The position numbers were made by a program, and so were the translations under genes. Below, one piece after another: positions 5,108 to 38,729 of a stretch of DNA of 64,000 nucleotides; position 1 is the stretch's first letter, and every line of letters starts with the position of its first letter. The notes under the pieces are model-generated. The model made no database searches. It saw nothing but the letters and a program-made list of their open reading frames with translations, and was not told where the DNA came from. The DNA is from Phycisphaerae bacterium (GTDB lineage: Bacteria > Planctomycetota > Phycisphaerae > SM23-33), in contig JBKHCL010000002.1 of the NCBI GenBank assembly GCA_046541875.1, forward strand, positions 3,811 to 67,810. The letters are read 5' to 3'.

Positions 5108-5119
5108 CGAGCGATCGGG

Positions 5120-22577: not shown

Positions 22578-22615
22578 GAGCCTTCCCGCCCCATGGGCCC
22601 GACAGGAGAAACACC

Positions 22616-24280
22616 ATGCCGCAGAACGTAGACCTCGCCAAACGCCGACGCATCATGCAGCGATCGATGAAGCTCGGCCATTGCATCTGCGATCCGAAAC
22701 GACCGTGTCCGTGCAATGTCTTCACACAGGATGGCTACTGCCCCTGCGCCGGGGAACGACCCGACACCGCGCCGGCCGACAACGTGAAGCTCACCGAGTT
22801 GGTCCACAATGCCGGCTGTGCGAGCAAAATCGCGCCGGCGGACCTGGAGACCGTGCTCAAACGCCTCCCACCGGTATCCGACCCGGCTGTGCTTTGCGGC
22901 CTGCCCGCCGGGGACGACGCCGGCGTCTATCGCCTGCCCGACGGGACCTGCCTGGTGCAGACCGTCGACGTGATGACGCCGGTGGTCGACGACGCCGAGA
23001 CGTTCGGGCGGATCTGCGCGGCCAATTGCCTCTCGGACATTTACGCGATGGGCGGAACGCCGCTGACCGCGCTGAGCATTCTGGCGTTCCCCTCCGAGAC
23101 GCAGGACGGCGAGCTGATGTACCGCATGATGAAGGGCGCGATGGACGTGCTGGGCGAGGCGGGGGTGGCCCTGATCGGCGGGCACAGCGTGAAAGACGAG
23201 GAAATCAAGCTCGGGTTCGCGATCACCGGCACGATCGACGCCGAGGCGGCTGTCTCGCACGGCAGCGCGAAGGTGGGCGATGTGCTCGTGCTCACCAAAC
23301 CGCTCGGGGCCGGCGTGCTGAACTTCTGCCGCCAGATCGGGCGGAATGCTCCGGGGCTGGCCGAGGCGGAGGCGTCGATGGCTACGCTGAACCGCGACGC
23401 GGCGGAGGCGATGAACGCGGTGGGCGTCTCGGCGGCGACGGACGTGACGGGCTTCGGGCTTTACGGGCACCTGATCAGCATGGCGCGTCATTCGGGGGTG
23501 ACCGCACAGGTCTGGGCCGATCGGCTGGGGGCGTTTCCCGGGGCGATCGAGGCTTTGGAGGACGACGTGGTCCCCGGGGCGATCGAGCGGAATCGTGAGT
23601 TCGTAGCCGACGATATCGCCATCGCCTCCGACGTCGCAGCCGGTGCGGGATTGCTGGGCTTCGACGCCCAGACCTCCGGCGGATTGCTGATGGCTGTGCC
23701 CGAGGCGAAACTGGCGGACCTGCGCGAGCAGTTGCAGCGGCGGAATACCCCGGCGATGGTCATCGGAAAGGTGGTGGCCGAGTCCGATGGCAGGATCGTC
23801 GTGACGACGGCGAAGGAGGCGGTCGAGTCGGCTGGGCTCAGGGACATCGTGGATACACCCGGAGGTGAGCAGGGCCGGAAGGCGAGTTGCGGCGGCGCCC
23901 AATCCGGCGAGAGTTCCTGCTGCCCGGGGAGCGAACCCGACGAGGCGAGCGGCGCGTGCTGCTCGGCCGGCAGGGAGGCGGGTACGGCCGGCGACTCGCT
24001 CAAGGCGTTCGGCGCGCTGATGCGATCGGCAGGGGCCGGCGGTACGATCGACGAGACGGCCAAGGAACTGATCACCTTCGCGCTGGTGCTGCTGAGCAAG
24101 TGCGAACCGTGCTTCGAGGCCCATTGGGCGAAGGCGGCGAACATGGGCATCTCCCGGGAGCAACTGGACGAAGCCGCCTGGTGCGCCATCGCCATGGGCG
24201 GGGCGCCGGTGCGGATGTTCTACGAGCAGATGAAATCCCGGGTCGACGCCGACCACGTGCCGGGCAGGGGATGCTGCTGA
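22616..24280 (+). CDS. selD: Selenide, water dikinase SelD fused to N-terminal Cys-rich segment and C-terminal AhpD-like domain
   Basis: SelD core with HNAGCASKI active-site loop. Cys codon TGT, not TGA. The N-terminal 50 aa carry HCICDPKRPCPCNV...YCPC. The C-terminal 150 aa have SCC...CC plus CEPCFEAHW, an AhpD/CMD-like CxxC helix. Confidence 0.85.
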   Translation: MPQNVDLAKRRRIMQRSMKLGHCICDPKRPCPCNVFTQDGYCPCAGERPDTAPADNVKLTELVHNAGCASKIAPADLETVLKRLPPVSDPAVLCGLPAGDDAGVYRLPDGTCLVQTVDVMTPVVDDAETFGRICAANCLSDIYAMGGTPLTALSILAFPSETQDGELMYRMMKGAMDVLGEAGVALIGGHSVKDEEIKLGFAITGTIDAEAAVSHGSAKVGDVLVLTKPLGAGVLNFCRQIGRNAPGLAEAEASMATLNRDAAEAMNAVGVSAATDVTGFGLYGHLISMARHSGVTAQVWADRLGAFPGAIEALEDDVVPGAIERNREFVADDIAIASDVAAGAGLLGFDAQTSGGLLMAVPEAKLADLREQLQRRNTPAMVIGKVVAESDGRIVVTTAKEAVESAGLRDIVDTPGGEQGRKASCGGAQSGESSCCPGSEPDEASGACCSAGREAGTAGDSLKAFGALMRSAGAGGTIDETAKELITFALVLLSKCEPCFEAHWAKAANMGISREQLDEAAWCAIAMGGAPVRMFYEQMKSRVDADHVPGRGCC

Positions 24281-26115: not shown

Positions 26116-26194
26116 GCGGGGGCGCATAGAAAACCGCGCGTCGAGGAAGGTATGCACCCGCTCGACGCGCGGCCGATTCCGTCTCCGGCGGGCG

Positions 26195-26356
26195 TCAGTC
26201 GACCGGCGAGAACTCGCTCTTGTCGGCGCCGCACTCGGGGCAGACCCAGTCGTCGGGAATGTCCTCGAAGGCGGTTCCGGGTTCCACGCCATTGTCGGGG
26301 TCGCCCACGGCCGGGTCGTACTCCCAGCCGCACAGATCGCAAACGTACTTCTTCAT
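26195..26356 (-). CDS. Rubredoxin (53 aa; absent from the ORF track because it is under 60 aa)
   Basis: Minus-strand translation [53 protein letters not shown], with canonical CxxCG...CPxCG rubredoxin motifs. Coordinates verified against flanking track ORFs. Confidence 0.85.
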
Positions 26357-26491
26357 GTTGGCACCTTTCTTTCGGTTGGAGTCAAAACGTCGTTGCTGCT
26401 GAATGTTGGTTACCGGGTCAGGCTGTAAAAGTCAACGCAGCCGTCGATCGTTGCACGCGTCAACACGGGCAGGATGCCCGGGCTGTGTCTC

Positions 26492-26998
26492 TCACGGCGT
26501 TTCCGGTGGTGTATCGGTGGTTTCTTCGGGCTGGATTCCCAGCAGCTCGACCAGATCGGCCGGCTCGATGCGGTATCGGCTGCCCCGGCCCTGGAAGAAG
26601 CCGTGCTCGCGCACCAGGTGCACCGAGAGAGGCGTGTATCGCTGAACGACCTCGCCGGTTTTGGGGTCGGTCAGCTCGACCTCGCCCTTACGGAAGACCT
26701 TGCCCCCCCAAGGGGACGGGATCTTTCCCATCGACTCGCGATAGGTCGCCACCAGCCCGCGCCCGCCGGCCGTCGTGACGGTCACGGGGGCGCCGAACGT
26801 GTTGACCGCCGCGCTGAGAATGCGTTCCATCTCGTCGGCGATCCGGTCTTTCGTGATACCGAGATGGTCCAGTTCGTGGGCGTCGTTCTCGATGATCTCG
26901 TGCAGTGTGCGGTGATCGTGTCCGAGAAAGCCCTCGCGGCAGAGAACGCCCGGGGCCATCCGTTTCATCAGTCGGTCTTCGTCGGGGAGTTTTTTCAT
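26492..26998 (-). CDS. Hypothetical conserved protein between nqrF and rubredoxin
   Basis: 168 aa, no TM. His/Glu-rich N-terminal half (HDHRTLHEIIENDAHELDH). No recognisable family. Confidence 0.5.
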   Translation of the reverse strand: MKKLPDEDRLMKRMAPGVLCREGFLGHDHRTLHEIIENDAHELDHLGITKDRIADEMERILSAAVNTFGAPVTVTTAGGRGLVATYRESMGKIPSPWGGKVFRKGEVELTDPKTGEVVQRYTPLSVHLVREHGFFQGRGSRYRIEPADLVELLGIQPEETTDTPPETP

Positions 26999-27013
26999 GC
27001 GGAGGCTCCGGGG

Positions 27014-28126
27014 CTAGGCGAACTTGTCGTAGAAGCGGCGGTCTTCGATGATGCCCTTGCCATCGAGCACTTCGGCTGCGGCGTCGATCATGCCCGGCGA
27101 GCCGCAGAGGTACGCCTCCATCTCGGCCCCGTCCTTCACGCGGCGGTCGAGCACATCGGTAATCAGCCCGGTCTCGCCGCTCCAGTCGTCCGGCGGGTCC
27201 TGGCAGGACAGCGCGGGCACGTACTCGAACCACTCCAGTTCGTCGGCCAGGGCGTAGAGTTCCTCGGTGAGGAACATGTCACGCGGGTTGACCGCGCCGA
27301 AGAAGTAGGTGCATTTCTTGCGGAGGTCGTGTTCCTTCATGTGGCGAATCATCGACCAGAACGGGGCCATACCCGATCCGCCGGCGATCCAGACCATTTC
27401 GCGATCGGTCTCCTGCAGGCGGAAATCGCCGTAGGGGCCCGAGAGGGTCACCTCGTCGCCCTCGGAGACGTGCTCGAACACCCACGTCGTGCAGATGCCC
27501 CCGGGCACGAGGCGGATCATCAGTTCGATGTAGCCGTTGTCCGATGGTTTGGACGAAATCGAGTACGCCCGGTAGACCGGCTCGGGGTTGTCCCCGTAGG
27601 CGGGGGCTTCGAGCTGCATGTATTGGCCGGCGACGAAGTCGATGGTCTCCGGCTCGATCAGCTTGATGCGCAGCTCCTTGATATCGTGCGTCAGGTCGCG
27701 GATCTGCTCGACCCGGCCGCGGAATTCCTTGATCGAGAACAGCTCCTCGGGGATCTCGATGGCCATGTCGTTGCGGACCTTGACCTGGCAGGAGATCCGG
27801 ATGTTGTTCTCTTTCTCGGTTTCGTCCAGGAGAGGGTCTTCGGTGGGTACGACCGGGCCGCCGCCGTCAAGAATCTTGCACTTGCAGTATGCGCAGGTCC
27901 CCCGGCCGCCACAGGCGGAGGGAATGAACAACCCCTCGCCCTTGAGCGATGCCAGCAGACTTTCGCCGCCCTCGACCTGCAGTTCCTTCTCGCCGTTGTT
28001 GATCGAAATCGTGCAGATCCCGTAGTTGACGAGATACTTCTCGGCCAGCAGCAACAGCGCCGCCAGCACGGTGGACAGTACGCAGGCCGTCAGGGCCGCC
28101 AGAAGTACGCCGGTTACCAGGTTCAT
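27014..28126 (-). CDS. nqrF: Na+-translocating NADH:quinone oxidoreductase subunit F-like (2Fe-2S ferredoxin/FAD/NADH)
   Basis: N-terminal TM, plant-type 2Fe-2S motif CGGRGTCAYCKC, RxYS FAD motif (YRAYSISS), NAD-binding GGSGMAPF. Confidence 0.88.
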   Translation of the reverse strand: MNLVTGVLLAALTACVLSTVLAALLLLAEKYLVNYGICTISINNGEKELQVEGGESLLASLKGEGLFIPSACGGRGTCAYCKCKILDGGGPVVPTEDPLLDETEKENNIRISCQVKVRNDMAIEIPEELFSIKEFRGRVEQIRDLTHDIKELRIKLIEPETIDFVAGQYMQLEAPAYGDNPEPVYRAYSISSKPSDNGYIELMIRLVPGGICTTWVFEHVSEGDEVTLSGPYGDFRLQETDREMVWIAGGSGMAPFWSMIRHMKEHDLRKKCTYFFGAVNPRDMFLTEELYALADELEWFEYVPALSCQDPPDDWSGETGLITDVLDRRVKDGAEMEAYLCGSPGMIDAAAEVLDGKGIIEDRRFYDKFA

Positions 28127-28139
28127 CGAGTCGCCTCGC

Positions 28140-28805
28140 TCACAGTTTGATCATTCCCTGGAAGACGGTGAACGCCATGGCCATGATGCCGGTGATAATC
28201 AGCGTAATCCCCGGGCCCTCCAGCGCGGCGGGAATCTTCGCCTTGCTCAGCCGTTGGCGAATGCCCGCCATGATGACGATCGCCATGAACCAGCCCAGTC
28301 CGGAACCGAGCCCGAAGACGAAGACCTCCGGCAGGCCGTACCCTTTGGAGAGCACGTCGTTGACCATGAACAGGCTGGCCCCGAGGATCGCGCAGTTGAC
28401 GGTGATCAGCGGCAGGAAGATGCCCAGCGAGTAGTACAGCGGTGTCGAAATCCGCTCGATGAGCATCTCCATCAGCTGCACGAACGCGGCGATGACCACG
28501 ATGAACAGGATCAGCTTGAGGCTCTCCGCCGGGACGCCATAGGGTTCGAGCGGCTGAAGCACATACACGTACAACAGGTAGTTCAGCACGCAGGTGCACG
28601 TCGTGACGAACAGCACCGCCAGCCCCATTCCCACCGACGCCTTGAGCTGTCGGCTGATCGAGAGGAACGGGCACATTCCCAGAAACCGCGTCAGCAGGAT
28701 GTTGTTGGTCAGCGAGGCGGAAACCAGGATGAGCACCATTCCCGCGGTGAAGCCCACATCGGGCGTGGCGCCCTGGGCCTGCATCTGGGCGAGCAGGGGG
28801 GTCAT
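28140..28805 (-). CDS. nqrE: NqrE/RnfA-family membrane subunit
   Basis: Six-TM NqrDE/RnfAE family with conserved Cys in TM segments. Operon position between nqrD and nqrF. Confidence 0.85.
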   Translation of the reverse strand: MTPLLAQMQAQGATPDVGFTAGMVLILVSASLTNNILLTRFLGMCPFLSISRQLKASVGMGLAVLFVTTCTCVLNYLLYVYVLQPLEPYGVPAESLKLILFIVVIAAFVQLMEMLIERISTPLYYSLGIFLPLITVNCAILGASLFMVNDVLSKGYGLPEVFVFGLGSGLGWFMAIVIMAGIRQRLSKAKIPAALEGPGITLIITGIMAMAFTVFQGMIKL

Positions 28806-29482
28806 GCGGCACCTCCTTCAGCGGCTGCTTCGCGTTTGAGGGAATACCACCGGGCCACCCAAACGGCGATCGCCAGCAGGAAAAACGCTCCGGGGGGCAT
28901 GACCATGATCGTCCAATGTCGCCACGCCGTCTCGTGCACGCCCGGCTGGTACGCCCGGAGGAAGTCGAAGGTGATCTGCCACGACGTGCCCTTCAGCAGC
29001 GTTCCGAACCCGAGGACCTCGCGGACGATCGCGATGCTCATGAGCACCAGGCTGTAGCCCAGCCCGGCCCCGAGCCCGTCGGTGAGGGCGGGGAGGGGTT
29101 TGTTCTTGTTGGCGAACGCTTCCAGCCGACCCAGGACGATGCAGTTGGTGATGATCAGCCCGACGTAGGCGGCGATGTCCTTGTGGGTATCGAAGAAGAA
29201 CACCCGGAAGACGATGTCCACCACGATGACGAAGACGGCGATGATGAGCACCTGCACCATGATGCGGACGCGGTTGGGCGTGAAGTTTCGCAGCAGGCTG
29301 ACGGTGAGCGAGGACATCGTCGTCGCCCAGATGAGCCCGACGCACATCAGCGCGGTGTTGAACACGAGGTTCGTCACCGCCAGGGCCGAGCAGATGCCCA
29401 GCACCTGCCGGAAGATGGGGTTCTCCGCCCAGAACTGGGTCTCCAGCGCCTCTCGGGCGGTGAGTGTATCCTGCGGGGGCAT
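28802..29482 (-). CDS. nqrD: NqrD/RnfE-family membrane subunit
   Basis: NqrDE/RnfAE family membrane protein. ATGA overlaps on both sides. Confidence 0.85.
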   Translation of the reverse strand: MPPQDTLTAREALETQFWAENPIFRQVLGICSALAVTNLVFNTALMCVGLIWATTMSSLTVSLLRNFTPNRVRIMVQVLIIAVFVIVVDIVFRVFFFDTHKDIAAYVGLIITNCIVLGRLEAFANKNKPLPALTDGLGAGLGYSLVLMSIAIVREVLGFGTLLKGTSWQITFDFLRAYQPGVHETAWRHWTIMVMPPGAFFLLAIAVWVARWYSLKREAAAEGGAA

Positions 29483-30246
29483 TACACGCCTCCTTCCACG
29501 TCAGGAGCGTTGGCGTCGGGCGACGATGCGCTCTTGAGCAGGCCTTTGGCCCGGGCGGCCCGGCGGAACTGCTCGATGCGGGTATTCACGAACGCCTCGA
29601 CGGCGGTGCTGGTTCCGGTGGCGCCGGTGATGGCGTCCACGTGCCTGCCGTAGGCCGATTCGCCTTCATCCGGGCTGGACTTGGTGATGTAGATGATCTG
29701 GTCGGCCTCGGTGGGCGGTGAGATATCCAACCCCTCGAACTGCTCGGCGAAGGTCTCCTCGGTGATGCGTCCGCCCAGCCCGGGCGTTTCCTGGTGGGCC
29801 AGGAACACCGCGCCCAGCGACTTGTTCATGTCCGGGGCGACTGCGAGGATCCCGTCGATCCGCGCCCAGAAGCCGATCCCCCAGATGGGCATCGCGTAGC
29901 CGATGAGCTTGCCGCCCGCGTCGGGGTCGGTGTCGTAGGCCTGGTACGTCTGCAGCCGGGGGTCGGTGGGGTGGTTGAAGTTCACGCCGGATTCCGGGTC
30001 GATCAGGTCTCCCTCGACCTTGCGAATGTGGGTGTTGTAGAGCTCCTCGATGCGGGCATCGGACGGTTCGGGCGTCTCGGCCAGTTCGAAAACGCTCACC
30101 AGCGCACTCATCCGCGCCAGTTGCTCGTTGCGTTTGACGATATGCTGCGTCGAGGCGTGCAGCGTCATGATGGCCGCGGTGAACAGCGCGGAAACGACGG
30201 CGGCGTAGAGGATGACGTAGGTGGGATTCTTGGTATTCAGTTTCAT
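29482..30246 (-). CDS. nqrC: NqrC (FMN-binding) subunit
   Basis: N-terminal TM. Covalent-FMN attachment motif ITGATGTS near the C-terminus. Confidence 0.85.
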   Translation of the reverse strand: MKLNTKNPTYVILYAAVVSALFTAAIMTLHASTQHIVKRNEQLARMSALVSVFELAETPEPSDARIEELYNTHIRKVEGDLIDPESGVNFNHPTDPRLQTYQAYDTDPDAGGKLIGYAMPIWGIGFWARIDGILAVAPDMNKSLGAVFLAHQETPGLGGRITEETFAEQFEGLDISPPTEADQIIYITKSSPDEGESAYGRHVDAITGATGTSTAVEAFVNTRIEQFRRAARAKGLLKSASSPDANAPDVEGGV

Positions 30247-31379
30247 TGGTCACCCTTCCCGGCGGCGGCCCGGGCTTTTCGCCGGTCCTCCCAGGAGCCC
30301 ACGCCCAGTTCGATCAGCGGGGCGAGCATGTTGCCCAGCAGGATGCTGAACGTCGCGGCGGCGATGAACGGGCCCTTCCAGCGGAGGAAGACCAGCAGGA
30401 AGCCGATGACGAACGCGTAGATCAGCCGGGCCGAGTTCTTTCGCGGCGCGGAGACCGGTTCGGTCACCATGAAGACCATCGCGTACAGCGTGGTCCCGCT
30501 GAGCACCTGCCACGCCAGCGGGGGCACCTGTCCGACGTCGGTGTACCCCAGTCCCTGGCGGAACAGCAAACTGGCGGCCGTCACGCCGATGAGCCCGCCG
30601 AGCATGAGTCGCCAACTGGCGGTTTTCGTCACCAGCAGGTAAATCGCACACAGCAGGATGATCACGCCGCACCCCTCTCCGATACTGCCGGCCGCGAGGA
30701 TCTCTTCGCTGCCGCTGGGCGTCTGGAAGATCCCGCCGATGGTCCCCCACGCCATGTCCCACAGCGTGGCGCCCTGGCCGTTGTTGACGATGGCTTCGCT
30801 GCCGTACTTGGTGCCCACGAACATGGGGCTGGCCTGGGTGACCGCGTCGGCGACGGTCTCGCCGCCGGCCTGGAGATACTCGGGCAACTGCTTGAGCGAC
30901 TTGAACGACCAGTGTGCGAACCCGCCGGGAAAGCCCTGGAACGCGGGCACGAACCGCCCGGTGAGGTCCTGCGGGAAGCAGATGTACACGAACGCGCGTC
31001 CGACGATGGCGGGGTTTACCCAGTTTCGCCCGAACCCGCCGTAGACTTCCTTGCCGAACAGGACCGCGACAGCCGCCCCCACACCTGCCACCCACAGCGG
31101 TGTGGTGGCCGGCAGCGAGAGCGAATACAGCAGAATCGTCACGAACAGGGCGGTGGACACGGGTTGACCGCGATGTTGCGCGGAGACGTACTCCACCGCG
31201 AAGCCCACCAGCAGGCAGAACGCCACGATCGCCGCCACGACCCACCCGAAGAAGTAGATCCCGGTGAGCATCACGGGGATCAGGGCGTAGATCATGCGCA
31301 GCATCTGGGGCTGCTTCATGAGAAGCTTTTTGGGTTTCTTCTTTTTGGCGGCGGATCCGCCGGATGCTTGTGCGCTCAT
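30243..31379 (-). CDS. nqrB: NqrB/RnfD-family membrane subunit
   Basis: Polytopic protein with GQGATLW FMN-attachment-like motif and C-terminal VTEPVSAP...LFANL-like region resembling NqrB. Confidence 0.82.
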   Translation of the reverse strand: MSAQASGGSAAKKKKPKKLLMKQPQMLRMIYALIPVMLTGIYFFGWVVAAIVAFCLLVGFAVEYVSAQHRGQPVSTALFVTILLYSLSLPATTPLWVAGVGAAVAVLFGKEVYGGFGRNWVNPAIVGRAFVYICFPQDLTGRFVPAFQGFPGGFAHWSFKSLKQLPEYLQAGGETVADAVTQASPMFVGTKYGSEAIVNNGQGATLWDMAWGTIGGIFQTPSGSEEILAAGSIGEGCGVIILLCAIYLLVTKTASWRLMLGGLIGVTAASLLFRQGLGYTDVGQVPPLAWQVLSGTTLYAMVFMVTEPVSAPRKNSARLIYAFVIGFLLVFLRWKGPFIAAATFSILLGNMLAPLIELGVGSWEDRRKARAAAGKGDQ

Positions 31380-31476
31380 GCGGTCTCGTTTGTCCCAAGG
31401 CGTGTCGTTGCAGTGCGTCCATCAGCCATCAAGGCGGGCATCCCCTCGCCCGTGTGGATCCGTGGCGGACGGGCCG

Positions 31477-32694
31477 TTACTTCACTTCGGCGAGTTGGGC
31501 GTGCAATCTTTCGCCGATTGTCTTTCCCAGCTCCCGGCAGGAGGCCAATTCTTCGTTGGTGGGCACATATCGGCAGCGGACCGGGTCGGCCACCACGTCC
31601 ACGTCCATCTCTTCCAGCAGGGCGGTGAGGAGCTTGGGCGCTTCGCCGCTCCAGCCGAACGACCCGAAAGCGGCGCCGATGAGGTTCTTCGGCTTGAGCC
31701 CTTTGAGATAGGTCATGCAGTCGGCCAGCGTGGGGAAGATGTTGTTGTTCAATGTGGGCGAGCCAACGATCAGCGCGCCGGCTTCGAGAACCTCGGTCGC
31801 CACGTCGCTTCGGTGTGATCCGTTGAGGGGCATCAGGCGAACGGCGATGTCCTTCTCGCCCAGCCCCTCTGCCACCAGGCGGGCCATCTTCGCGGTGCTC
31901 TGCCACATCGTGTCGTAGACGATGACGGCCTTGTCGGTCTTCTCCTGGGCACTCCAGCGGGCGTAGCTGTCCAGGACGTAATCGATGTCCGAGGCGTTGC
32001 GGTAGATCGGGCCATGGTCGGGAGCGACGATCTCGATCTGTTCGCGCAGGGGCCCGAGCTTGTCCAACGCCTTGGAAATGAACGGCGCCAGGTGCATCAG
32101 GATGTTCGCGTAGTACTTGGTCAACTCGTACTGCAGCACGGACGATTCGATCTGGTCGGCGAACCGCTCATTGCCGGCCAGGTGCATCCCGAAGGCGTCC
32201 TGGCTGAACAGGAGCTTGTCCTCCTTCAGGAAGCTGACCATGCTGTCGGGCCAGTGGCACATGCGGGTTTCGTAGAACGCCAGGTGCACGCCGCCCAGGT
32301 CGATCTCCTGCCCGTCTTCGACCACGGTGACGTCCTCGATGATGTGATGCTCCGAGAGCGCGCGGGCGCCCTGCCTCGAGGCGTAAACCGTCGAGACGCC
32401 CAACTCCCCAGCCAGTTCGCCCACCAGTCCGCTGTGGTCCATCTCGGAGTGGTTGGATACAATCACATCGATTTCGCCGGGATCGGCGACCGAGGCGATG
32501 CGCTCGAGCATCTCGCTCTTGAAGGGTGCCTTGACCGTGTCGATCAGTGTGAGCTTGTCCGCTTTGACGAGAAACGCGTTGTACGTGCTGCCACGGCTGG
32601 TCGCATAGCCGTGGAAGTCCCGCAATGCCCAGTCGATCGCGCCGACCCACCAGACGTGCTCACTGACCTTTATCGCTTTGTACGTCTCAGCCAT
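31477..32694 (-). CDS. Flavodiiron protein (class A FDP; O2/NO reductase, ROO/FprA-like)
   Basis: Metallo-beta-lactamase-like diiron motif HSEMDH (FDP-type HxExDH). C-terminal flavodoxin domain VIVYDTMWQSTAKMA. 405 aa. Confidence 0.88.
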   Translation of the reverse strand: MAETYKAIKVSEHVWWVGAIDWALRDFHGYATSRGSTYNAFLVKADKLTLIDTVKAPFKSEMLERIASVADPGEIDVIVSNHSEMDHSGLVGELAGELGVSTVYASRQGARALSEHHIIEDVTVVEDGQEIDLGGVHLAFYETRMCHWPDSMVSFLKEDKLLFSQDAFGMHLAGNERFADQIESSVLQYELTKYYANILMHLAPFISKALDKLGPLREQIEIVAPDHGPIYRNASDIDYVLDSYARWSAQEKTDKAVIVYDTMWQSTAKMARLVAEGLGEKDIAVRLMPLNGSHRSDVATEVLEAGALIVGSPTLNNNIFPTLADCMTYLKGLKPKNLIGAAFGSFGWSGEAPKLLTALLEEMDVDVVADPVRCRYVPTNEELASCRELGKTIGERLHAQLAEVK

Positions 32695-32751
32695 CCGCTT
32701 GGTCCTCGCTGTCGGCCGACCCGGCCCATGACCGATCGGCTCGACGGGTTG

Positions 32752-33270
32752 TCACTTCTCTTCATCGCGCAACTGCATCAGGAGGTTCTTGAGGCTCGTT
32801 GCGTGCCCCATCTCCTGGTGGATGATGTCGTCGATTTTCGCTCGCTGGTCGGCGTTGGGCACGTATTCCTTGAGCCCGACGTAGAAGAGGATCGAGTCGC
32901 TCTCCATCTCGACGGCCCTGGCGATCACGTCGGTCAGGCGCTCCTGGCCGGTCCACGTTTTGGCGGGTCCGCCGGCCGGGTCGAACAGGCGATCGCTCGC
33001 CAGCATTTCCAGGTAGCTGCGGACGGACTCGTCGGGCTGGGCCGCCTGGTCGCCCTCGGCGGCTGCGCTTTGGCGGGCCAGCCAGTTCTCCTTCATCGCG
33101 GAGAACACCTGGAGATGATCCTCTTCCATCACCGCCAGCTGGCGGAGAAACTGCTCAGCCTTGGGGTCGCTCGCCAACTCCGCTGAGCGACGATAGAACT
33201 CCACACCATTGCTCTCCACCTGGCAGGCCAGGTCCAGCAGGTCCGCAGCGCTCATCTCATTGACAGCCAT
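32752..33270 (-). CDS. Ferritin-like diiron-carboxylate protein (rubrerythrin/ferritin-like superfamily)
   Basis: Two E..EEDH/E..H helices (VMEEDHLQVF, HQEMGH). 172 aa. Confidence 0.55.
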   Translation of the reverse strand: MAVNEMSAADLLDLACQVESNGVEFYRRSAELASDPKAEQFLRQLAVMEEDHLQVFSAMKENWLARQSAAAEGDQAAQPDESVRSYLEMLASDRLFDPAGGPAKTWTGQERLTDVIARAVEMESDSILFYVGLKEYVPNADQRAKIDDIIHQEMGHATSLKNLLMQLRDEEK

Positions 33271-33276
33271 CCGTGG

Positions 33277-33798
33277 TTACTCTCCTTCGCCTTCAGCCGG
33301 CGGCGGGGTGAAGCTTCGCTGTCCCAGCTCACGATCGATCATGAACAGCGCGCCGGGCGCTTCCTTGCTGAGCTTGAGCTGCTGGACGATCTGGTCCACG
33401 GAGGCCTCTTCCTCGACCTGTTCGTCGGTGAACCACTGCAACATCGACTCGCAGGCGTAGTCCTTCTGCTCGCGGGCGAGGGTCACCAGGTCGTCGATCC
33501 GCTGGCTGATGTACTGCTCGTGCTTGTAGGCAGCCTCGAAGGCGGCCAGCGGCGAGTCCCACTCGGTCTGAGGCGCCTCGATGGCGGTGAGCTTCACGGT
33601 CCCACCACGCTCGTTGATGTGGTGGAAGAACTTCATCGCGTGGACCATCTCCTCCTGGGCCTGGGCACGCATCCACGCAGCCGCCCCGGAGAGATTCATC
33701 GTCTCAAACCACGCCGACATGCTCCAGTACAGGTAGGCCGAGAACGTCTCAGCGTTGATCTGCTCATTGAATGCCTTCTCAATCGGCTCCTTCATCAT
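33277..33798 (-). CDS. Non-heme ferritin
   Basis: MMKEPIEKAFNEQINAETFSAYLYWSMSAW... is a canonical bacterial ferritin N-terminus with ferroxidase Glu/His residues. The start is chosen at the first ATG after an AAAGGGA RBS. Confidence 0.85.
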   Translation of the reverse strand: MMKEPIEKAFNEQINAETFSAYLYWSMSAWFETMNLSGAAAWMRAQAQEEMVHAMKFFHHINERGGTVKLTAIEAPQTEWDSPLAAFEAAYKHEQYISQRIDDLVTLAREQKDYACESMLQWFTDEQVEEEASVDQIVQQLKLSKEAPGALFMIDRELGQRSFTPPPAEGEGE

Positions 33799-33826
33799 CG
33801 TTTTGATCCCTTTCAGGTCTGTTAAT

Positions 33827-34204
33827 TCAGCTTTTCCACAGGCCATGCACGTTGCACAGCTCCCGGGCGGACAGCTCGCCGTCCACAGCCGGGAACGTAG
33901 CAGCCGGCTCGTCGTCCGGCGTCAGACGCTTGTACATTACAACGTCGCCGGCCGTCAGTTCGATCCACTGGATGAAGTGCTTGTCCTCCATCGGATGGGC
34001 GGTTTCCTTGCCCACGCGGACCTCCACCCCCTCGGCCGTTCGCTCGATGTACGGAACGTGCTTCTCGTTGGAGGCGTCCTCGGTCTTCGCTTCCAGCAGC
34101 GTCATCGGTTGGCCGCAACAGACCGGCTCGCCGGCGCCGCCTTCGATCGCCTCGACGACGATCCCGCAGACTTCACACTTGTAGACTTCCTTCGGTTTGG
34201 TCAT
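33827..34204 (-). CDS. dfx: Desulfoferrodoxin (2Fe superoxide reductase)
   Basis: N-terminal desulforedoxin CEVCG...CCG and C-terminal SOR domain (HVPYIE...H...C..H). 125 aa, start at Met88 of the track ORF. Confidence 0.88.
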   Translation of the reverse strand: MTKPKEVYKCEVCGIVVEAIEGGAGEPVCCGQPMTLLEAKTEDASNEKHVPYIERTAEGVEVRVGKETAHPMEDKHFIQWIELTAGDVVMYKRLTPDDEPAATFPAVDGELSARELCNVHGLWKS

Positions 34205-34230
34205 GGGTCCTTCCCGGTCGGGTCCGGCTG

Positions 34231-34755
34231 TCAGCTCTGCTCGGTTGCCTGCCTGACGGCCGCCAGGGCAGCGTCGTAGTTCGGCTCGTCGGTCATCTCT
34301 TCCACCAACTCCTTGTAGACGACCCTGCCGCCGGTGTCCACCACCAGCACCGCACGCGCAAGAAGTCGCAACTCCTTGATCAACAACCCGTACTTCGTGG
34401 CGAAGTCCGCGTCGCGATGGTCCGAGAGCGTCACGATCCTGTCGGCGTCCTGCCGGCCGCACCATCGCGCCTGGGCAAAGGGCAGGTCCATCGAGAGGGT
34501 GAGAATCACGACGTTGTCGCTCAACTCCCCGGCGGCGTCATTGAACTTTTTGGTCTGCGTGGAGCAGACGCTCGTATCCAGCGAGGGCACCGATGAGAGG
34601 ACAATCACCTTGCCCGACCAGTCGGACAGAGACTTCTCCGAGAGATCGTTGGCAATCGCCGTGAAGTCCACCGCCTGATCGCCCACGCTGACGTCCTGCC
34701 CGATCAGTGTCAGCGGGTCGCCCTTGAATGTAATTGCGCCTTCCTGTTCAGCCAT
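34231..34755 (-). CDS. tpx: Thiol peroxidase Tpx (atypical 2-Cys peroxiredoxin)
   Basis: Near-collinear with E. coli Tpx, including SVPSLDTSVC peroxidatic Cys and DLPFAQARWC resolving Cys. Start at Met27 of the track ORF. Confidence 0.88.
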   Translation of the reverse strand: MAEQEGAITFKGDPLTLIGQDVSVGDQAVDFTAIANDLSEKSLSDWSGKVIVLSSVPSLDTSVCSTQTKKFNDAAGELSDNVVILTLSMDLPFAQARWCGRQDADRIVTLSDHRDADFATKYGLLIKELRLLARAVLVVDTGGRVVYKELVEEMTDEPNYDAALAAVRQATEQS

Positions 34756-34874
34756 CGTCGTCACTCCTTGTGCTGTGCATGGGTTGCGGTGCAACCGGCC
34801 GCCGGAGAGAACCCTCCCCGGCGGCGTCGGCACCTTGATTCATCCTATGCACCTGCCGCGTACAATTGACCGAT

Positions 34875-35426
34875 TCAGGCGGCGAAAGCGATGTACTTCG
34901 CGCCGTCGGCGCTGCAGATGGGACACTTGTCCGGGGCGTCGCCTTCCAGCGTGTGGCCGCAAACCGGGCAAATCTGTACCGTCCCCAGCGCCAGGTCTTC
35001 GCCGTTGTCGACGGCCGTCTTGGCGTCGTGGAACATCTTCGCGTGAATCTTCTCGGCCGAGATCGCGTAATGCATGCTGCGCTGGGCGCCGCTTTCGTCC
35101 TGCATCTCCGCCACCGCCAGATAGGCCGGGTACATCTCATTGATCTCGAATTCCTCGCCGCCGATGGCGCCGGAGAGGTTCTCGGAGGTGCTCGCCAGCC
35201 CGAACCCCGCCATCGAGGTCACCGGGTGGTCGCCCCCGACATCTTTCATCGCGCGGAAATGCCCCGTCGCGTGGGCCTGCTCGGCCCGGGAAATCGCCCG
35301 GAACAACCGGGCGACGTTCGGAAATCCGTCCTTCTCGGCCTTGTCGCCCCAGATCATGTAGCGCATATGGGCCTGGGATTCGCCCCCAAAAGCACTGCGA
35401 AGGTTCTCAGCGGTCATGTCATGCAT
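34875..35426 (-). CDS. rbr: Rubrerythrin
   Basis: Diiron four-helix bundle (E..H pairs) plus C-terminal rubredoxin-like CPVCG...CPIC. Alternative start at Met4 (35417). Confidence 0.88.
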   Translation of the reverse strand: MHDMTAENLRSAFGGESQAHMRYMIWGDKAEKDGFPNVARLFRAISRAEQAHATGHFRAMKDVGGDHPVTSMAGFGLASTSENLSGAIGGEEFEINEMYPAYLAVAEMQDESGAQRSMHYAISAEKIHAKMFHDAKTAVDNGEDLALGTVQICPVCGHTLEGDAPDKCPICSADGAKYIAFAA

Positions 35427-35516
35427 GTGTTGCTCCTCTCTGTGGAAATAGCCCTTGCGGGCATCCTCGATACCAACTGGTTCCGTGAAATCATCCCCGG
35501 GCAGAATGCCCGGCAG

Positions 35517-35948
35517 CTATGCCGTCTCGTCGGCCTTGCGGTCATCGAGGCAGGACGGGCAAACCCCGACGTACTCGATGCGATAGCCCTGTACATCATA
35601 CCCACCGGCATCTTCCAGCAGATCGACGGCGGCGGGAATTTCCCGGACCTCGACGTCGTCCACCCGGCCACACTGCTCACAACGGATGTGCACGTGCGGA
35701 TACAGGTCGGCGTCGTACCGCCGCTGGGGACCACCCTCGATCCGCTTGATCGCACCGCACTCGGCGAGCACTTCCAGGTTGCGATACACCGTCCCGAGGC
35801 TGATGCGAGGCAGCGTCCGCCGAACCGCCCGGTACACATCGTCGGCGGTGGGGTGGGCGTCGGTCGCCTGGAGCTCCGAGAGAATCAGCCGACGCTGACG
35901 CGTCATCCGCCGACCCTGACCTCGAAACTCGTTCTCTTTGTCGCTCAT
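35517..35948 (-). CDS. perR: Fur-family peroxide-responsive repressor (PerR-like)
   Basis: Fur-family HTH, regulatory H..H.H site and structural zinc site CEQCG...CPSC. Leads the redox-stress gene cluster. Confidence 0.75.
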   Translation of the reverse strand: MSDKENEFRGQGRRMTRQRRLILSELQATDAHPTADDVYRAVRRTLPRISLGTVYRNLEVLAECGAIKRIEGGPQRRYDADLYPHVHIRCEQCGRVDDVEVREIPAAVDLLEDAGGYDVQGYRIEYVGVCPSCLDDRKADETA

Positions 35949-35952
35949 AGGA

Positions 35953-35975
35953 ATTCTTATTGATTAGAATAGCCC
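35953..35975 (-). promoter_or_regulatory. AT-rich inverted repeat ATTCT-N8-AGAAT plus GGGCTATT element immediately upstream of perR (candidate PerR/Fur-type operator)
   Basis: Conspicuous AT-rich 18-mer in a GC-rich background, overlapping the perR RBS region. The GGGCTATT element, about 20 nt upstream of the perR ATG, recurs about 21 nt upstream of the rbr ATG. Confidence 0.3.
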
Positions 35976-36123
35976 CTGAAACTACGGCAAGCAAGGGAAT
36001 ACCCGAAGAATTCGCCTGTTTCAAGTACTCTTTAAGGTATATCCGTGTGAATGCGTGCATCCGACCCCGTCAACCCGGAAAAATCGCGTCGGCTGGGGGG
36101 CCACGGCCACGGGCTGGCGCGGG

Positions 36124-36669
36124 CTATCCGCTGTCCGAAATGTCGCCGGGGGTTGCCTCGCCCGCTTCGCTCAGCAGCGCGCGATAACTCTCGGCGGGCT
36201 TGGCCCCGACGATCCAGCGTTCCGGTTGGCCGTTGCTGAACAGCACGACGGTCGGGGTGTACTTCACGCCGTACTCCATCGCCAGGTTCGGCCGCGCTGC
36301 GACATCCACCTTCACGATGCGAGCCCGACCGGCATATTCGTCGGCCAACGCCTCCAACGTCGGCGCCAGCCGGGCGCAGGGCGGGCAGCCGTTCTTGTAG
36401 AAATCCACCAGGACGGGCACGTCGGCATCGAGCACGTCCGAGCGGAACTGCTCCGGGGAAGTGATCTGTGCGACGTTCGGGCCGTAACCGCCGGTAAGCA
36501 GGGGCAGGATCTGGGCCCCGACGCCTCCCAGCAGGGCCCCCACCAAGGCGGCACGCACGGGCCAGCCGCGAGGCCGGGCCTTCCCACCGCTCTGACGGGC
36601 GCGCGTCAGATACGCGAACAAACCGCCGATTACCGCCCCCGCGATCATGCCCAGCAACAGCACACCCAT
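36124..36669 (-). CDS. Membrane-anchored thioredoxin
   Basis: N-terminal TM helix and thioredoxin fold with CPPC active site (DFYKNGCPPCARL). Confidence 0.8.
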   Translation of the reverse strand: MGVLLLGMIAGAVIGGLFAYLTRARQSGGKARPRGWPVRAALVGALLGGVGAQILPLLTGGYGPNVAQITSPEQFRSDVLDADVPVLVDFYKNGCPPCARLAPTLEALADEYAGRARIVKVDVAARPNLAMEYGVKYTPTVVLFSNGQPERWIVGAKPAESYRALLSEAGEATPGDISDSG

Positions 36670-36922: not shown

Positions 36923-38233
36923 TTACTCACCGGCCGGCTGAGTAGTGACTACTTTGGGGACCTTCGGGACGTGCACACGCTGCCTTTCTTCGTCATTGAG
37001 AGTCACCGCCACAAGCTCTGAGTCCTTCCGCAGCCACCAAGTCGCCTTACCGTCTTTGATCAGGCAGACGCCATCGTCCAATATACCCCCGAACCGTTCA
37101 TATTCAAAAGGAACCACCGTTCTACACTCTCCATTCAACACACCCCATCGGTCGCCTTTCCGCGCTGCGTACAGATCACCACAGGCGAGGAACACCCTGT
37201 TGTATTCACGGGGGATCACCCAATTCCCTTCTCTGTCAATGACGCCATAGAGATCGTCCCGCATGACGCCGGCCACTCCACCCTCAAAGTGATTGGCCAT
37301 TCTGAACAGATCATTCGTAATCCGTGATCCATCTGTACGAATATACGTCCAGTAGGCAACGCCATTTTCCAGCAACGCCGCCCGCGCCCGCTCTTCTGAA
37401 AATGGGCTGGCGACCATGTACCGGGGTTCTATCCTCGTTGTCCCATTTGCATCAACATAGCCCCACTTGTTTCCGATCTTCATGTTGATTAACCCGCTTC
37501 GCGAAATGCGCTCATACTCTTCATCATGTGCGTCATCAATCGGGAATCTGGGCTTCACCTTCCAACGACCTTCACCGTCAATGATACCCCACTTATCCCC
37601 AGCCTGAACCACGGCAACCCCCTCGGACATCGCACAGGCCCCGTCGTACTTCGGTTCGATGACCCAATTGCCCTCAACGTCAATAACCCCCCACTTGCCA
37701 TTGTAGCTAACAGCAACATACCTGCCATCCCAAATACGAACATCATCGTACTGCGGACGGCGCACCCAACGGCCATGGTAGTCTGTCAGCCCCCATTTCC
37801 TGTCTTTCAGCACAAGAATAGCATTGCCATCTAATCCAGACCCAATCAGGTTTGTGAACACCGGAGGAAGCACGTATGCCCCATTCCTGTCAATCACAGC
37901 GCCAGGCCCGAATTCGGCAACGCTCACAATAGCAACACCACATTTGAAAGACGACGCAAGGGCATATCGTGGCTCGATGGCCCAAGTGCCGTCCATGTGA
38001 ATATACCCATACAGTAGACCCCTCAAAGGATACTTCGCGGACGGATCCACTACTAACGGGTAGGGCAGGAGTCTCTCATCAGTCTTGCGGCCTTCATGCT
38101 TTGCGGCATCGCTGTCCGGTCGACTATCGGAGCAACCTGTCAGCAATAGCGCAACCATGTACACGCCCATACACCAAAGCCGCGTAACAGTTACAGATGA
38201 GGCCAACTGTGGCGTTTTTGCCTGTTGTATCAT
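36923..38233 (-). CDS. WG-repeat (KWG-like) lipoprotein
   Basis: Lipobox LLLTGCSDS. At least eight tandem repeats with a GxWG core (KWGLTD, KWGVID, KWGIID, KWGYVD, RWGVLN...). GGAG RBS upstream; start at Met78 of the track ORF. Lower GC than the surroundings. Confidence 0.65.
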   Translation of the reverse strand: MIQQAKTPQLASSVTVTRLWCMGVYMVALLLTGCSDSRPDSDAAKHEGRKTDERLLPYPLVVDPSAKYPLRGLLYGYIHMDGTWAIEPRYALASSFKCGVAIVSVAEFGPGAVIDRNGAYVLPPVFTNLIGSGLDGNAILVLKDRKWGLTDYHGRWVRRPQYDDVRIWDGRYVAVSYNGKWGVIDVEGNWVIEPKYDGACAMSEGVAVVQAGDKWGIIDGEGRWKVKPRFPIDDAHDEEYERISRSGLINMKIGNKWGYVDANGTTRIEPRYMVASPFSEERARAALLENGVAYWTYIRTDGSRITNDLFRMANHFEGGVAGVMRDDLYGVIDREGNWVIPREYNRVFLACGDLYAARKGDRWGVLNGECRTVVPFEYERFGGILDDGVCLIKDGKATWWLRKDSELVAVTLNDEERQRVHVPKVPKVVTTQPAGE

Positions 38234-38453
38234 TTCGGCTCCTTTTTTCGCAGACGTTATCGGGGGACACCATACGGGTGTTCCACGTTGCAGTCCTGCT
38301 TGCCGCCGCCATGCTCCGAGACAATCTGCCCTGGAACCCACAAGACGCCTGAATGTCAAGACACTCGCTACGAACTGGAGGAATAATTCGTCTACCAGTG
38401 CCCTGGATTCGCCATGATCTGTCCGACACAGGGAGAAGCCACGACACGAGTCT

Positions 38454-38729
38454 TCATAGAGCAAGGCAGTCGCATGCTCTCGCTACCAGTGGAATTACGC
38501 CACAGATGGCCAAGCCAATCAGGATACACTTAAGCCATGGCCCCACGGACCGCCCAAAGGCAATCGCCAGCACGACGCCTGCGATCCACGCGACAGATGC
38601 ACACGCGAACACCCCGGTCCTGGCCTGAGGAACATATGTGGCCCACGCCATGCCGGCACCTGTTATGAGGCACACAACCGACAGCTCAATGGGTACTCTG
38701 CGGAGTGTTACTCGTGTGTCCGGGGTCAA
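38454..38729 (-). CDS. Small two-TM hypothetical membrane protein
   Basis: 91 aa with two hydrophobic helices. Same strand as and just upstream of the WG-repeat gene. Weak. Confidence 0.3.
   Translation of the reverse strand: MTPDTRVTLRRVPIELSVVCLITGAGMAWATYVPQARTGVFACASVAWIAGVVLAIAFGRSVGPWLKCILIGLAICGVIPLVARACDCLAL

Follow-up and report, generated by a model that had tools for sequence, protein, structure and literature searches.

A 64,000-nucleotide stretch of the genome of a Phycisphaerae bacterium (GenBank assembly GCA_046541875.1, contig JBKHCL010000002.1, positions 3,811 to 67,810 of the forward strand), which is called the window in the following, was analyzed, and a gene cluster at positions 26195 to 36669 was characterized. 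The cluster combines genes for the defense against oxygen and reactive oxygen species (ROS) with a module that is homologous to two membrane-bound complexes, namely Na+-translocating NADH:quinone oxidoreductase (Na+-NQR) and RNF. As judged from comparative sequence analysis, the module represents a variant of the NQR/RNF family that has not been described before, with a new sixth protein, here designated X, which is tied to rubredoxin (Rd) and to flavodiiron proteins (FDPs). What makes the locus most informative is the combination of an Nqr system without NqrA and X as a conserved sixth gene tied to Rd. It had been missed in the original prediction, which had been made from the sequence alone and had described an oxygen defense island of strict anaerobes or microaerophiles. 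The reading that we consider to be reasonably probable is that the cluster represents a chromosomal oxidative-stress operon, which is probably repressed by its own PerR-like regulator, and that its core FDP-NqrB'C'D'E'F'-X-Rd would form one electron-transfer chain (the primes denote the subunits encoded here). Within this reading, Rd is the putative electron acceptor, X the putative docking adaptor, and ion pumping as well as control by the PerR-like regulator are predicted functions.

An Nqr-like module without NqrA and its sixth gene

Like Na+-NQR (NqrABCDEF; Vibrio cholerae structures 7XK3 and 8A1T), the module contains five homologous subunits in the order B-C-D-E-F (for coordinates and Pfam matches compare Table 1). 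NqrA is missing: no NQRA or NQRA_SLBB domain was detected in any scanned open reading frame (ORF) of the window, and an NqrA domain is also missing within 10 kb of the related loci that are annotated. Genes for RnfB and RnfC were likewise not found, neither in the window nor in the related loci; NqrF occupies the input position, and X is encoded next after it. All five subunits scored below the equivalog cutoffs of the NCBIfam models (bits/cutoff: NqrB 182/414, NqrC 87.5/144, NqrD 222.6/235, NqrE 199.6/247.6, NqrF 278/295).

The largest deviations were observed for the NqrB-like subunit. It scored almost equally on the NCBIfam models rnfD and nqrB, and it is collinear end to end with RnfD (8ahx_D; residues 26-374 against 22-348). 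Residue 131 of V. cholerae NqrB aligned to residue 50, and thus the N-terminus is about 80 residues shorter. In V. cholerae NqrB, the N-terminal stretch Met1-Lys54 is interwoven with NqrA and makes up the quinone/inhibitor pocket (PMC9325719). The lack of the residues that form this quinone/NqrA site was counted in favor of an acceptor other than quinone. Furthermore, the equivalent of G140 is kept while G141 is replaced by phenylalanine, a glycine pair that we take to belong to the features of the quinone site; E144 is retained as well. At the acidic positions D346 and D397 either D or E is found. The flavin attachment motif [ST]GA[ST], which is SGAT in NqrB of Na+-NQR, reads DAVTQAS here and DA[VI][TS][AQ]A[TS]P throughout the family (T[QA]A[ST] at the core), i.e. 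the Thr/Ser acceptor is kept and the glycine is replaced.

The other subunits are closer to Na+-NQR. The sequence DAITGATGTS of the NqrC-like protein aligned with DAVSGATMTG of NqrC, and its ITGAT agrees with the flavinylation motif [ST]GA[ST]; an ApbE gene is not present in the cluster. The cysteines of the NqrD-like (LGICSALA, ITNCIVLG) and the NqrE-like protein (LGMCPFLS, TVNCAILG) are kept in all loci, and in Na+-NQR these four residues hold an intramembrane 2Fe-2S cluster (PMC9325719). The NqrF-like protein aligned with V. cholerae NqrF (8a1t_F) from residue 7 on with an E value of 7.5e-66. It shares the hydrophobic N-terminal anchor, the 2Fe-2S cysteines and the FAD/NADH domains, and the motif CGGRGxCxxC...C is conserved in the whole family. 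The system differs from Na+-NQR also by the additional gene X after NqrF and by the linked or fused Rd.

RNF (RnfABCDGE; 7ZC6, 8AHX, 9ERK) has the same membrane core, including the subunit RnfD discussed above, and is likewise used by anaerobes. Through a peripheral subunit that is docked on RnfD, its output reaches a soluble acceptor in the cytoplasm (PMC12174285). In contrast to RNF, the input subunit is the NADH-oxidizing NqrF instead of the polyferredoxin RnfB, and an RnfC with FMN and two 4Fe-4S clusters is absent; X is not related to it in sequence or in predicted fold and has no cofactor motif. Operons of nqrBCDEF without nqrA have been noted before in the anaerobes Pseudothermotoga lettingae, P. 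thermarum, Clostridium ultunense and 'Ca. Izimaplasma', and the acceptor was left open (PMC4148951, PMC5924567, PMC6256511). Unlike the present analysis, these reports mention neither a sixth gene nor a link to Rd or FDP.

The family of X was large and devoid of annotation. A word-index search yielded 116 homologues, and a full profile search yielded 1901 representative clusters (860 at E <= 1e-10), all of which lack Pfam domains as well as informative names. Nearly invariant are the motifs PG...EGFLG.D.R, E[SA]MG.IP[SC]P and HGF[FY]QGRGSRYRIEP, while the alignment contains no conserved cysteine and no cofactor-binding or redox motif. The AlphaFold2 (AF2) model of X had a confidence score (predicted local distance difference test, pLDDT) of 86 and did not match any solved fold.

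The genomic context of X was determined in a scan of species-representative genomes, all of them metagenome-assembled, which yielded 35 loci. In about 30 of these X is encoded directly after NqrB-C-D-E-F; the remaining loci are truncated at a contig end or degraded. The hosts belong to the Planctomycetota/Phycisphaerae, Verrucomicrobiota, Kiritimatiellia, Lentisphaerae, Fibrobacterota/Chitinispirillaceae, Eisenbacteria and Spirochaetota. The degraded locus (L039) was considered as a case of an X gene without Nqr and was dismissed as a deletion remnant, in which a fragment similar to NqrD abuts an X gene that lacks the first ~20 codons (9742-10486). An all-vs-all clustering of the ORFs of 33 loci revealed no other recurrent neighbor of NqrBCDEF-X apart from shadow ORFs. 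The constant position of X after NqrF and the lack of any further recurring neighbor indicate that NqrBCDEF-X is a self-contained unit of six genes, and on the basis of gene order X is the protein that occupies the role of its sixth subunit. A description of X or of a link between Nqr and Rd was not found in searches of the literature. The 'NQR/RNF-like' system of Meheust et al. (2021) was checked and is a different system, i.e. an NqrB-NqrF fusion.

Further observations were made in the course of the searches. A DUF2400 protein is encoded near NqrBCDEF-X in Fibrobacterota and in two planctomycete loci (L002 137-949, L014 about 10556-11614, L045 8547-9380). X-like domains were also found in longer proteins, i.e. 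two to four matched stretches are present in P0237 (885 aa), P0269 (2506 aa), P0349 (945 aa) and P0358 (385 aa), and one internal X domain is present in P0384 (660 aa). P0237 has a hydrophobic N-terminus that resembles a signal peptide, and none of the five proteins contains a Pfam domain. The X fold may thus be a general module that is also used outside the Nqr context.

Linkage to rubredoxin and flavodiiron proteins and natural fusions of X

The Rd gene directly follows X in six of the related loci (L010, L011, L012, L014, L015, L045), and in three of them (L010, L012, L014) an FDP gene directly precedes NqrB. A comparison with relatives had been suggested in the original prediction, and it confirmed the clustering: in these three loci the order Tpx-Dfx-Ftn-erythrin-FDP-Nqr'-X-Rd is kept, despite different flanks and NqrF identities to the window of 96 % (L010), 76 % (L012) and 67 % (L014). 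The genes trx, perR and rbr are not found upstream of tpx in L014.

Natural fusion proteins gave an independent view on the partners of X. In P0296 X is followed by a complete rubredoxin, in P0318 by a diiron domain of the rubrerythrin type with homology to the erythrin-like protein of the window (E 1e-7), and in P0287 by a nitroreductase. A search with P0296 revealed 22 distinct clusters (90 % identity) of X-Rd fusions, which have lengths of 207-213 aa and identities down to 49 %, and in which all four Rd cysteines are invariant. In all fusion loci that were examined, the gene of the fusion protein immediately follows NqrF. One such locus (L051, on a contig of 165 kb) contains a compact operon FDP-NqrB-C-D-E-F-[X-Rd], in which the gap between FDP and NqrB is only 12 bp. 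In a tree of NqrE, NqrF and X the fusion clade formed the deepest split from the clade of the window (identities of 50 % for NqrF and 32 % for NqrB). The linkage of FDP, Nqr', X and Rd thus occurs in two deeply separated clades, and therefore it is either ancestral or has evolved twice.

Fusions and gene order point to X as an adaptor that would dock electron acceptors. They also suggest Rd as an answer to the question of what is reduced by Nqr complexes without NqrA.

In one planctomycete locus without Rd or FDP (L017) genes for a nickel superoxide dismutase and a pterin-4a-carbinolamine dehydratase are situated just upstream of NqrB (4472-5720), and a hemerythrin-like gene is situated just downstream of X (11180-11506).

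Proposed electron-transfer chain and alternative explanations

The following path can be proposed for the chain. NADH would be oxidized by NqrF', first by its FAD and then by its 2Fe-2S cluster, and the electrons would pass through the membrane core in the same way as in Na+-NQR and RNF, i.e. via the 2Fe-2S cluster of NqrD'/NqrE', the covalent FMN of NqrC' and the covalent FMN and the riboflavin of NqrB'. They would leave the complex on the cytoplasmic face and would reduce a rubredoxin that is held by X, instead of a quinone in the NqrA/NqrB pocket or NAD+ via RnfC. In other lineages, X would hold an erythrin or a nitroreductase as acceptor. Reduced Rd could then serve FDP in the reduction of O2 to H2O or of NO to N2O, desulfoferrodoxin in the conversion of superoxide to H2O2, and rubrerythrin or the erythrin-like protein in that of H2O2 to H2O, while Tpx and ferritin would deal with organic peroxides and free iron, respectively.

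The transfer of electrons from NADH to Rd may be coupled to the export of Na+ or H+. The potential of NADH is about -320 mV and rubredoxins have potentials of roughly -60 to +30 mV, which by our own estimate results in a drop of about 0.3 V. This span is similar in size to the step from NADH to menaquinone, by which the Na+-NQR of anaerobes is driven, and would thus make ion translocation thermodynamically possible. The acidic residues of the ion path are retained, and we infer that ion translocation could accompany the NADH-to-Rd step.

Chains of soluble NADH:rubredoxin oxidoreductase (NROR), Rd and FDP (ROO) are known, as are clusters of the rbo-rub-roo type in Desulfovibrio, Clostridium and Moorella, and the NADH:Rd reductases known so far are soluble flavoproteins. 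The system of the window resembles these chains in the path from NADH to Rd and on to FDP, superoxide reductase (SOR) and rubrerythrin (Rbr), in the clustering of the same terminal enzymes and in the occurrence of natural fusions of partners. Fusions of FDP with Rd and NROR domains have been described (PMC9364112, PMC6033852), and the known FDP systems are characterized as not membrane bound (PMC9364112). In contrast, the sole NADH-oxidizing component encoded here belongs to a six-gene membrane complex of the NQR/RNF type. A soluble Rd reductase of the NROR type, i.e. of the pyridine-nucleotide-disulfide-oxidoreductase type, which is usually found together with Rd and FDP, was not detected in the cluster or among the scanned ORFs of the window, so that NqrF' is the only entry point for NAD(P)H in the cluster.

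It is tempting to go one step further and to regard FDP-NqrB'C'D'E'F'-X-Rd as a complete respiratory chain for O2 (or NO) without heme and quinone, which would contain an Na+/H+-pumping NADH:rubredoxin oxidoreductase with X in the place of NqrA or RnfC. This extended version is offered tentatively, as it appears possible rather than probable. If it is true, it would add a third type of output to the NQR/RNF family, and 'strict' anaerobes of the Planctomycetes-Verrucomicrobia-Chlamydiae (PVC) group, the Fibrobacterota and related phyla would conserve energy while they detoxify oxygen. In the known systems, FDPs, superoxide reductases and rubrerythrins receive their electrons via soluble reductases, with dissipation of the redox energy. 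If a complex of the NQR/RNF type fed FDP, SOR and Rbr, many uncultured anaerobes could couple the detoxification of oxygen and ROS to an ion gradient, which would blur the distinction between 'defense' and 'respiration'. In any case, the proposal offers a testable answer to a question raised in genome papers since 2014, namely the acceptor of NqrBCDEF without NqrA, and it is the first functional hypothesis for the large unannotated family X (about 1900 representative clusters). For biochemistry and cryo-electron microscopy, the X-Rd fusions that occur in nature can serve directly as reagents.

Several points weigh against Rd as the general acceptor and against X as its adaptor. About 25 of the 35 species-level loci with X have neither Rd nor FDP within 10 kb, and thus Rd may not be the universal acceptor. 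The Rd-linked loci of the Phycisphaerae form essentially one clade in the tree, so that they count as about one evolutionary event, to which the fusion clade is added. In the AF2 model of the X-Rd fusion both domains were predicted confidently with a pLDDT of 89.6, while the linker had a pLDDT of 69 and the predicted template-modeling score (pTM) was 0.72, and the model thus did not define a fixed interface between X and Rd. In addition, X has neither a cofactor motif nor a recognizable fold, the adaptor role is deduced from fusions and gene order alone, and all support for the proposed chain is comparative.

X could instead be a structural substitute for NqrA, with quinone still serving as the acceptor. 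In this case the module would be an ordinary NADH:(mena)quinone oxidoreductase, in which X stabilizes NqrB or positions NqrF without a cofactor, and its place in the ROS cluster would reflect co-regulation, e.g. for NADH oxidation and membrane potential in the presence of O2. NqrA is likewise free of cofactors, reviewers ascribe to it a stabilizing role only and none in catalysis, and the riboflavin of NqrB passes the electrons directly to the quinone (PMC12174285); for this reason X, which has no redox motif, could be a structural stand-in. The retention of G140 and E144 in NqrB is in line with this possibility, as are the many X-type operons without Rd or FDP nearby, the neighbors of which are murI, HEAT-repeat genes or two-component genes. 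However, it leaves unexplained why fusions of X have arisen recurrently, with Rd (22 clusters), with an erythrin domain and with a nitroreductase, all of them directly after NqrF where the locus was examined, and why FDP, Nqr' and X-Rd form a compact operon in a deeply branching clade. It is also at odds with the missing N-terminal part of NqrB, which contributes the quinone/inhibitor pocket (PMC9325719), with the replacement of G141, and with the lack of a soluble Rd reductase gene in the cluster. Taken together, quinone reduction seems rather unlikely.

Two further explanations would separate Rd from the module. The complex might be a reversed or alternative RNF, which uses or builds an ion gradient to connect NADH with a low-potential acceptor such as ferredoxin or flavodoxin, and Rd and FDP would then be reduced by another enzyme. 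The authors who described the operons without NqrA in C. ultunense and Pseudothermotoga have indeed proposed an acceptor more negative than quinone (PMC5924567, PMC4148951), and the collinearity of the NqrB-like subunit with RnfD and its near-equal scores on the two models would fit. Yet genes for ferredoxin, flavodoxin, RnfB or RnfC did not accompany the module in any locus examined, and the fusion partners of X differ from low-potential ferredoxins, Rd, erythrin and nitroreductase being high-potential or FMN acceptors. We regard this explanation as very improbable. Similarly improbable, if slightly less so, is that the 15 genes are independent units (trx; perR-rbr; tpx through FDP; nqr'-X; rd) that were juxtaposed without functional coupling. 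The gaps of 90-175 bp at trx/perR, perR/rbr, rbr/tpx, FDP/nqrB and X/rd would agree with separate units, as would the hairpins after perR and X, the promoter-like element before rd, the single candidate operator and the altered upstream genes of L014. Separate promoters are, however, compatible with functional coupling, and juxtaposition does not account for the order from Tpx to Rd that has been kept at NqrF identities from 96 % to 67 % with differing flanks, nor for the linkage of FDP, Nqr', X and Rd and the X-Rd fusion in a separate deep clade. The electron-transfer chain with Rd as acceptor thus remains the reading that we prefer.

Gene content, transcription signals and chromosomal setting of the cluster

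The features of the cluster are listed in Table 1. The borders given in the original prediction were exact, i.e. the ATG of the thioredoxin gene starts at position 36669 and the stop codon of the rubredoxin gene ends at position 26195. Every protein family named in it was verified with Pfam. In contrast, the claimed number of 18 genes had to be corrected to 15, which is also the sum of the families listed there; the largest gaps are only 175, 135 and 119 bp, and thus there is no space for three additional genes. As had been stated, all genes have the same direction (minus strand) and are closely spaced, with junctions that range from a 4-base overlap to the 175-bp gap. The order is trx, perR-like, rbr, tpx, dfx, ftn, erythrin-like, FDP, nqrBCDEF-like, X, rd.

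Table 1. Genes and putative signals of the cluster, in the direction of transcription (positions of the window).
Feature	Position	Strand	Evidence and remarks
Membrane-anchored thioredoxin-fold protein, CPPC motif	36124..36669	-	Pfam Thioredoxin 6.8e-23; two hydrophobic N-terminal segments
Promoter-like element before perR, TTGCTT-N17-TATTCT	35966..35994	-	read by eye; stretch nearly identical in L006
AT-rich imperfect palindrome ATTCTAAT-CA-ATAAGAAT (8-2-8), candidate PerR/Fur-type operator	35953..35970	-	overlaps the -10 element
PerR-like regulator of the Fur family	35517..35948	-	Pfam FUR 1.5e-26; start codon uncertain, the relative is annotated ~11 codons shorter
Hairpin CCGGGCATTCTGCCCGG just 3' of the perR stop codon	35497..35513	-	-13.8 kcal/mol
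Rubrerythrin, diiron and C-terminal rubredoxin-like domain	34875..35426	-	Pfam Rubrerythrin 3.9e-27, RUBY_RBDX 7.6e-09
Thiol peroxidase (Tpx-type peroxiredoxin)	34231..34755	-	Pfam Redoxin 4.9e-26, AhpC-TSA 1e-19
Desulfoferrodoxin (2Fe superoxide reductase)	33827..34207	-	Pfam Desulfoferrod_N 3.5e-15, Desulfoferrodox 1.5e-19
Bacterial ferritin	33277..33798	-	Pfam Ferritin 1.6e-42; L006 orthologue 173 aa
Erythrin-like diiron four-helix protein, rubrerythrin family without rubredoxin domain	32752..33270	-	Pfam Rubrerythrin 3.7e-11
Class A flavodiiron protein (O2/NO reductase), 405 aa	31477..32694	-	Pfam ODP 2.4e-14, Flavodoxin_1 1.6e-11
NqrB/RnfD-like subunit, short RnfD-like N-terminus	30243..31379	-	Pfam NQR2_RnfD_RnfE 6.2e-68
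NqrC/RnfG-like FMN-binding subunit, transmembrane anchor	29482..30246	-	Pfam FMN_bind 2e-12
NqrD/RnfE-like membrane subunit	28802..29482	-	Pfam Rnf-Nqr 2.2e-53
NqrE/RnfA-like membrane subunit	28140..28805	-	Pfam Rnf-Nqr 1.2e-52
NqrF-like NADH-oxidizing subunit, transmembrane anchor, 2Fe-2S, FAD and NAD domains	27014..28126	-	Pfam Fer2, FAD_binding_6, NAD_binding_1
X, soluble, 168 aa, sixth gene of the module without NqrA	26492..26998	-	no Pfam or NCBIfam match
Hairpin 3' of the X stop codon	26464..26482	-	-14.3 kcal/mol; core identical to the perR hairpin
Promoter-like element before rd, TTGACT-N17-TAACCA	26407..26435	-	read by eye and from relatives
Rubredoxin, 53 aa	26195..26356	-	Pfam Rubredoxin 8.4e-26
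Intrinsic-terminator-like hairpin, 11-bp stem, GTTTTCT tail	26128..26171	-	-27.2 kcal/mol; shared with the convergent LysR gene

The presence of a non-heme-iron toolkit against O2 and ROS of the type found in anaerobes had been proposed correctly; it consists of rubrerythrin, 2Fe-SOR, class A FDP and Rd, with Tpx and ferritin in addition. The desulfoferrodoxin has the N-terminal Fe(Cys)4 desulforedoxin-like domain (CxxC...CC in the translation) and the C-terminal SOR domain that define a 2Fe-SOR. The FDP carries the HxExDH motif (NHSEMDH) and a flavodoxin domain without additional domains, which defines class A; with the flavorubredoxin-type NCBIfam model an E value of 1.1e-111 was obtained, below that model's cutoff. 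The ATG of tpx at position 34755 agrees with the 174-aa orthologue in L006, which is the closest relative of the locus (88-98 % identical). In the thioredoxin-fold protein the two hydrophobic segments flank a strongly basic loop rich in Arg and Lys (RARQSGGKARPRGWP). According to the positive-inside rule the CPPC domain would therefore face the periplasm, and the protein may not necessarily be the cytoplasmic reductant of Tpx. Catalase, superoxide dismutase (SOD) or heme oxidase genes were not seen among the scanned ORFs of the window. A largely anaerobic lifestyle of the host, as suggested in the original prediction, is plausible from the gene content of this one window.

The assignment of the regulator was substantiated. 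The best PDB match was PerR of Bacillus subtilis (2FE3, E 3e-23), and the alignment revealed that the regulatory ligands H37, D85, H91, H93 and D104 (B. subtilis numbering) are all conserved, as are the equivalents of the structural Zn(Cys)4 residues C96, C99, C136 and C139. The top NCBIfam models were also PerR, with 105.3 and 100.6 bits, which is below their cutoffs of 180 and 200. In clostridia the PerR regulons include rbr, dfx, FDP and rd, a set that is also found in the cluster. The ligand set, the proximity of the regulator gene to rbr and an AT-rich palindrome over its own promoter are features shared with the PerR regulons of B. subtilis, Clostridium acetobutylicum and Desulfovibrio vulgaris. 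Differences to these are the low score of the regulator (105 vs 180 bits), the 8-2-8 architecture of the palindrome instead of the 7-1-7 PerR box, and the presence of a single site in the cluster.

This palindrome was the only Fur-type match in the window at up to four mismatches, and it is kept at the same place in L006 with one mismatch. At this threshold no further PerR boxes were found before rbr, tpx, FDP, nqrB and rd. The predicted PerR operator thus exists as a candidate before perR, while the rest of the window is devoid of sites. The promoter-like elements and hairpins were identified by eye and by comparison with relatives; a scan of the region 25-38 kb for consensus promoters and terminators gave counts no better than shuffled sequence, and none was called inside the cluster. 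The arrangement TTGAC[AT]-N17-TA.. before rd was also seen between X and rd in L006, L008 and L009, and rd probably has an additional promoter of its own. The proposal that thioredoxin leads the operon did not hold, as trx is situated upstream of the promoter-like element of perR, beyond the 175-bp gap that contains it, and is probably a transcription unit of its own. Hence, of the single regulatory unit that had been envisaged, one PerR regulon from perR through X is plausible, while the position of trx, the hairpins after perR and X, the separate promoter-like element of rd and the presence of only one palindrome argue against one simple unit comprising the whole cluster.

The core of the hairpins after perR and X, CGGGCAT[TC]CTGCCCG, occurs in two exact copies, and five matches were found at up to two mismatches vs 1.0 expected by chance. 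It could act in RNA processing, RNA stability or attenuation. The X-rd spacer of L006 (10508-10889) has a length of 383 bp compared to 135 bp in the window, which is due to duplicated palindromic (REP-like) elements. With Rfam, three tRNAs were the sole matches in the window, and neither a riboswitch nor an sRNA was detected inside the cluster.

The designation as an island is justified in the sense of a conserved gene cluster and not in the sense of a mobile element. The GC content of the cluster is 0.62-0.65 and that of third codon positions (GC3) is 0.80-0.89, composition and codon bias are similar to those of the flanking genes, and the neighbors are ordinary genes of the core chromosome. 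On one side these are TonB/ExbB, type II secretion (T2SS), SelB, SelD, tRNA-Leu, DinB-like and LysR, and on the other side a WG-repeat protein, TPM, rpsB-tsf-pyrH-frr, iPGM, PFK and accBC.

Some of the neighbors deserve mention. The genes for SelB (an ORF of 744 aa) and, following it, a SelD of 590 aa are located at 20343-24280 on the plus strand; this SelD has a Cys-rich N-terminal extension and a C-terminal domain similar to carboxymuconolactone decarboxylase/AhpD with a CxxC motif. Because SelB and SelD adjoin the cluster, selenoprotein genes were considered and rejected: each of the 15 ORFs is complete without read-through of a TGA codon, and neither a tRNA-Sec nor SelA was found in the window. 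An OxyR-like role of the convergent LysR gene was also rejected, as a cysteine pair of the OxyR type is not visible and the gene is absent beside the cluster in L008 and L009. In these two loci a glucose-6-phosphate dehydrogenase gene (L008 9009-10502, L009 5298-6851) is the convergent neighbor downstream of rd. The gene of the WG-repeat protein (36923-38464, minus strand) directly upstream of trx has a GC3 of 0.56 vs about 0.85 in neighboring genes, and the GC content falls to 0.56-0.59 in the 36-39 kb region, which may represent a foreign insertion that adjoins the cluster. Elsewhere in the window, two large ORFs on the plus strand (44066-47326, 1086 aa, and 51118-53340, 740 aa) have a gene-like codon bias and no Pfam match.

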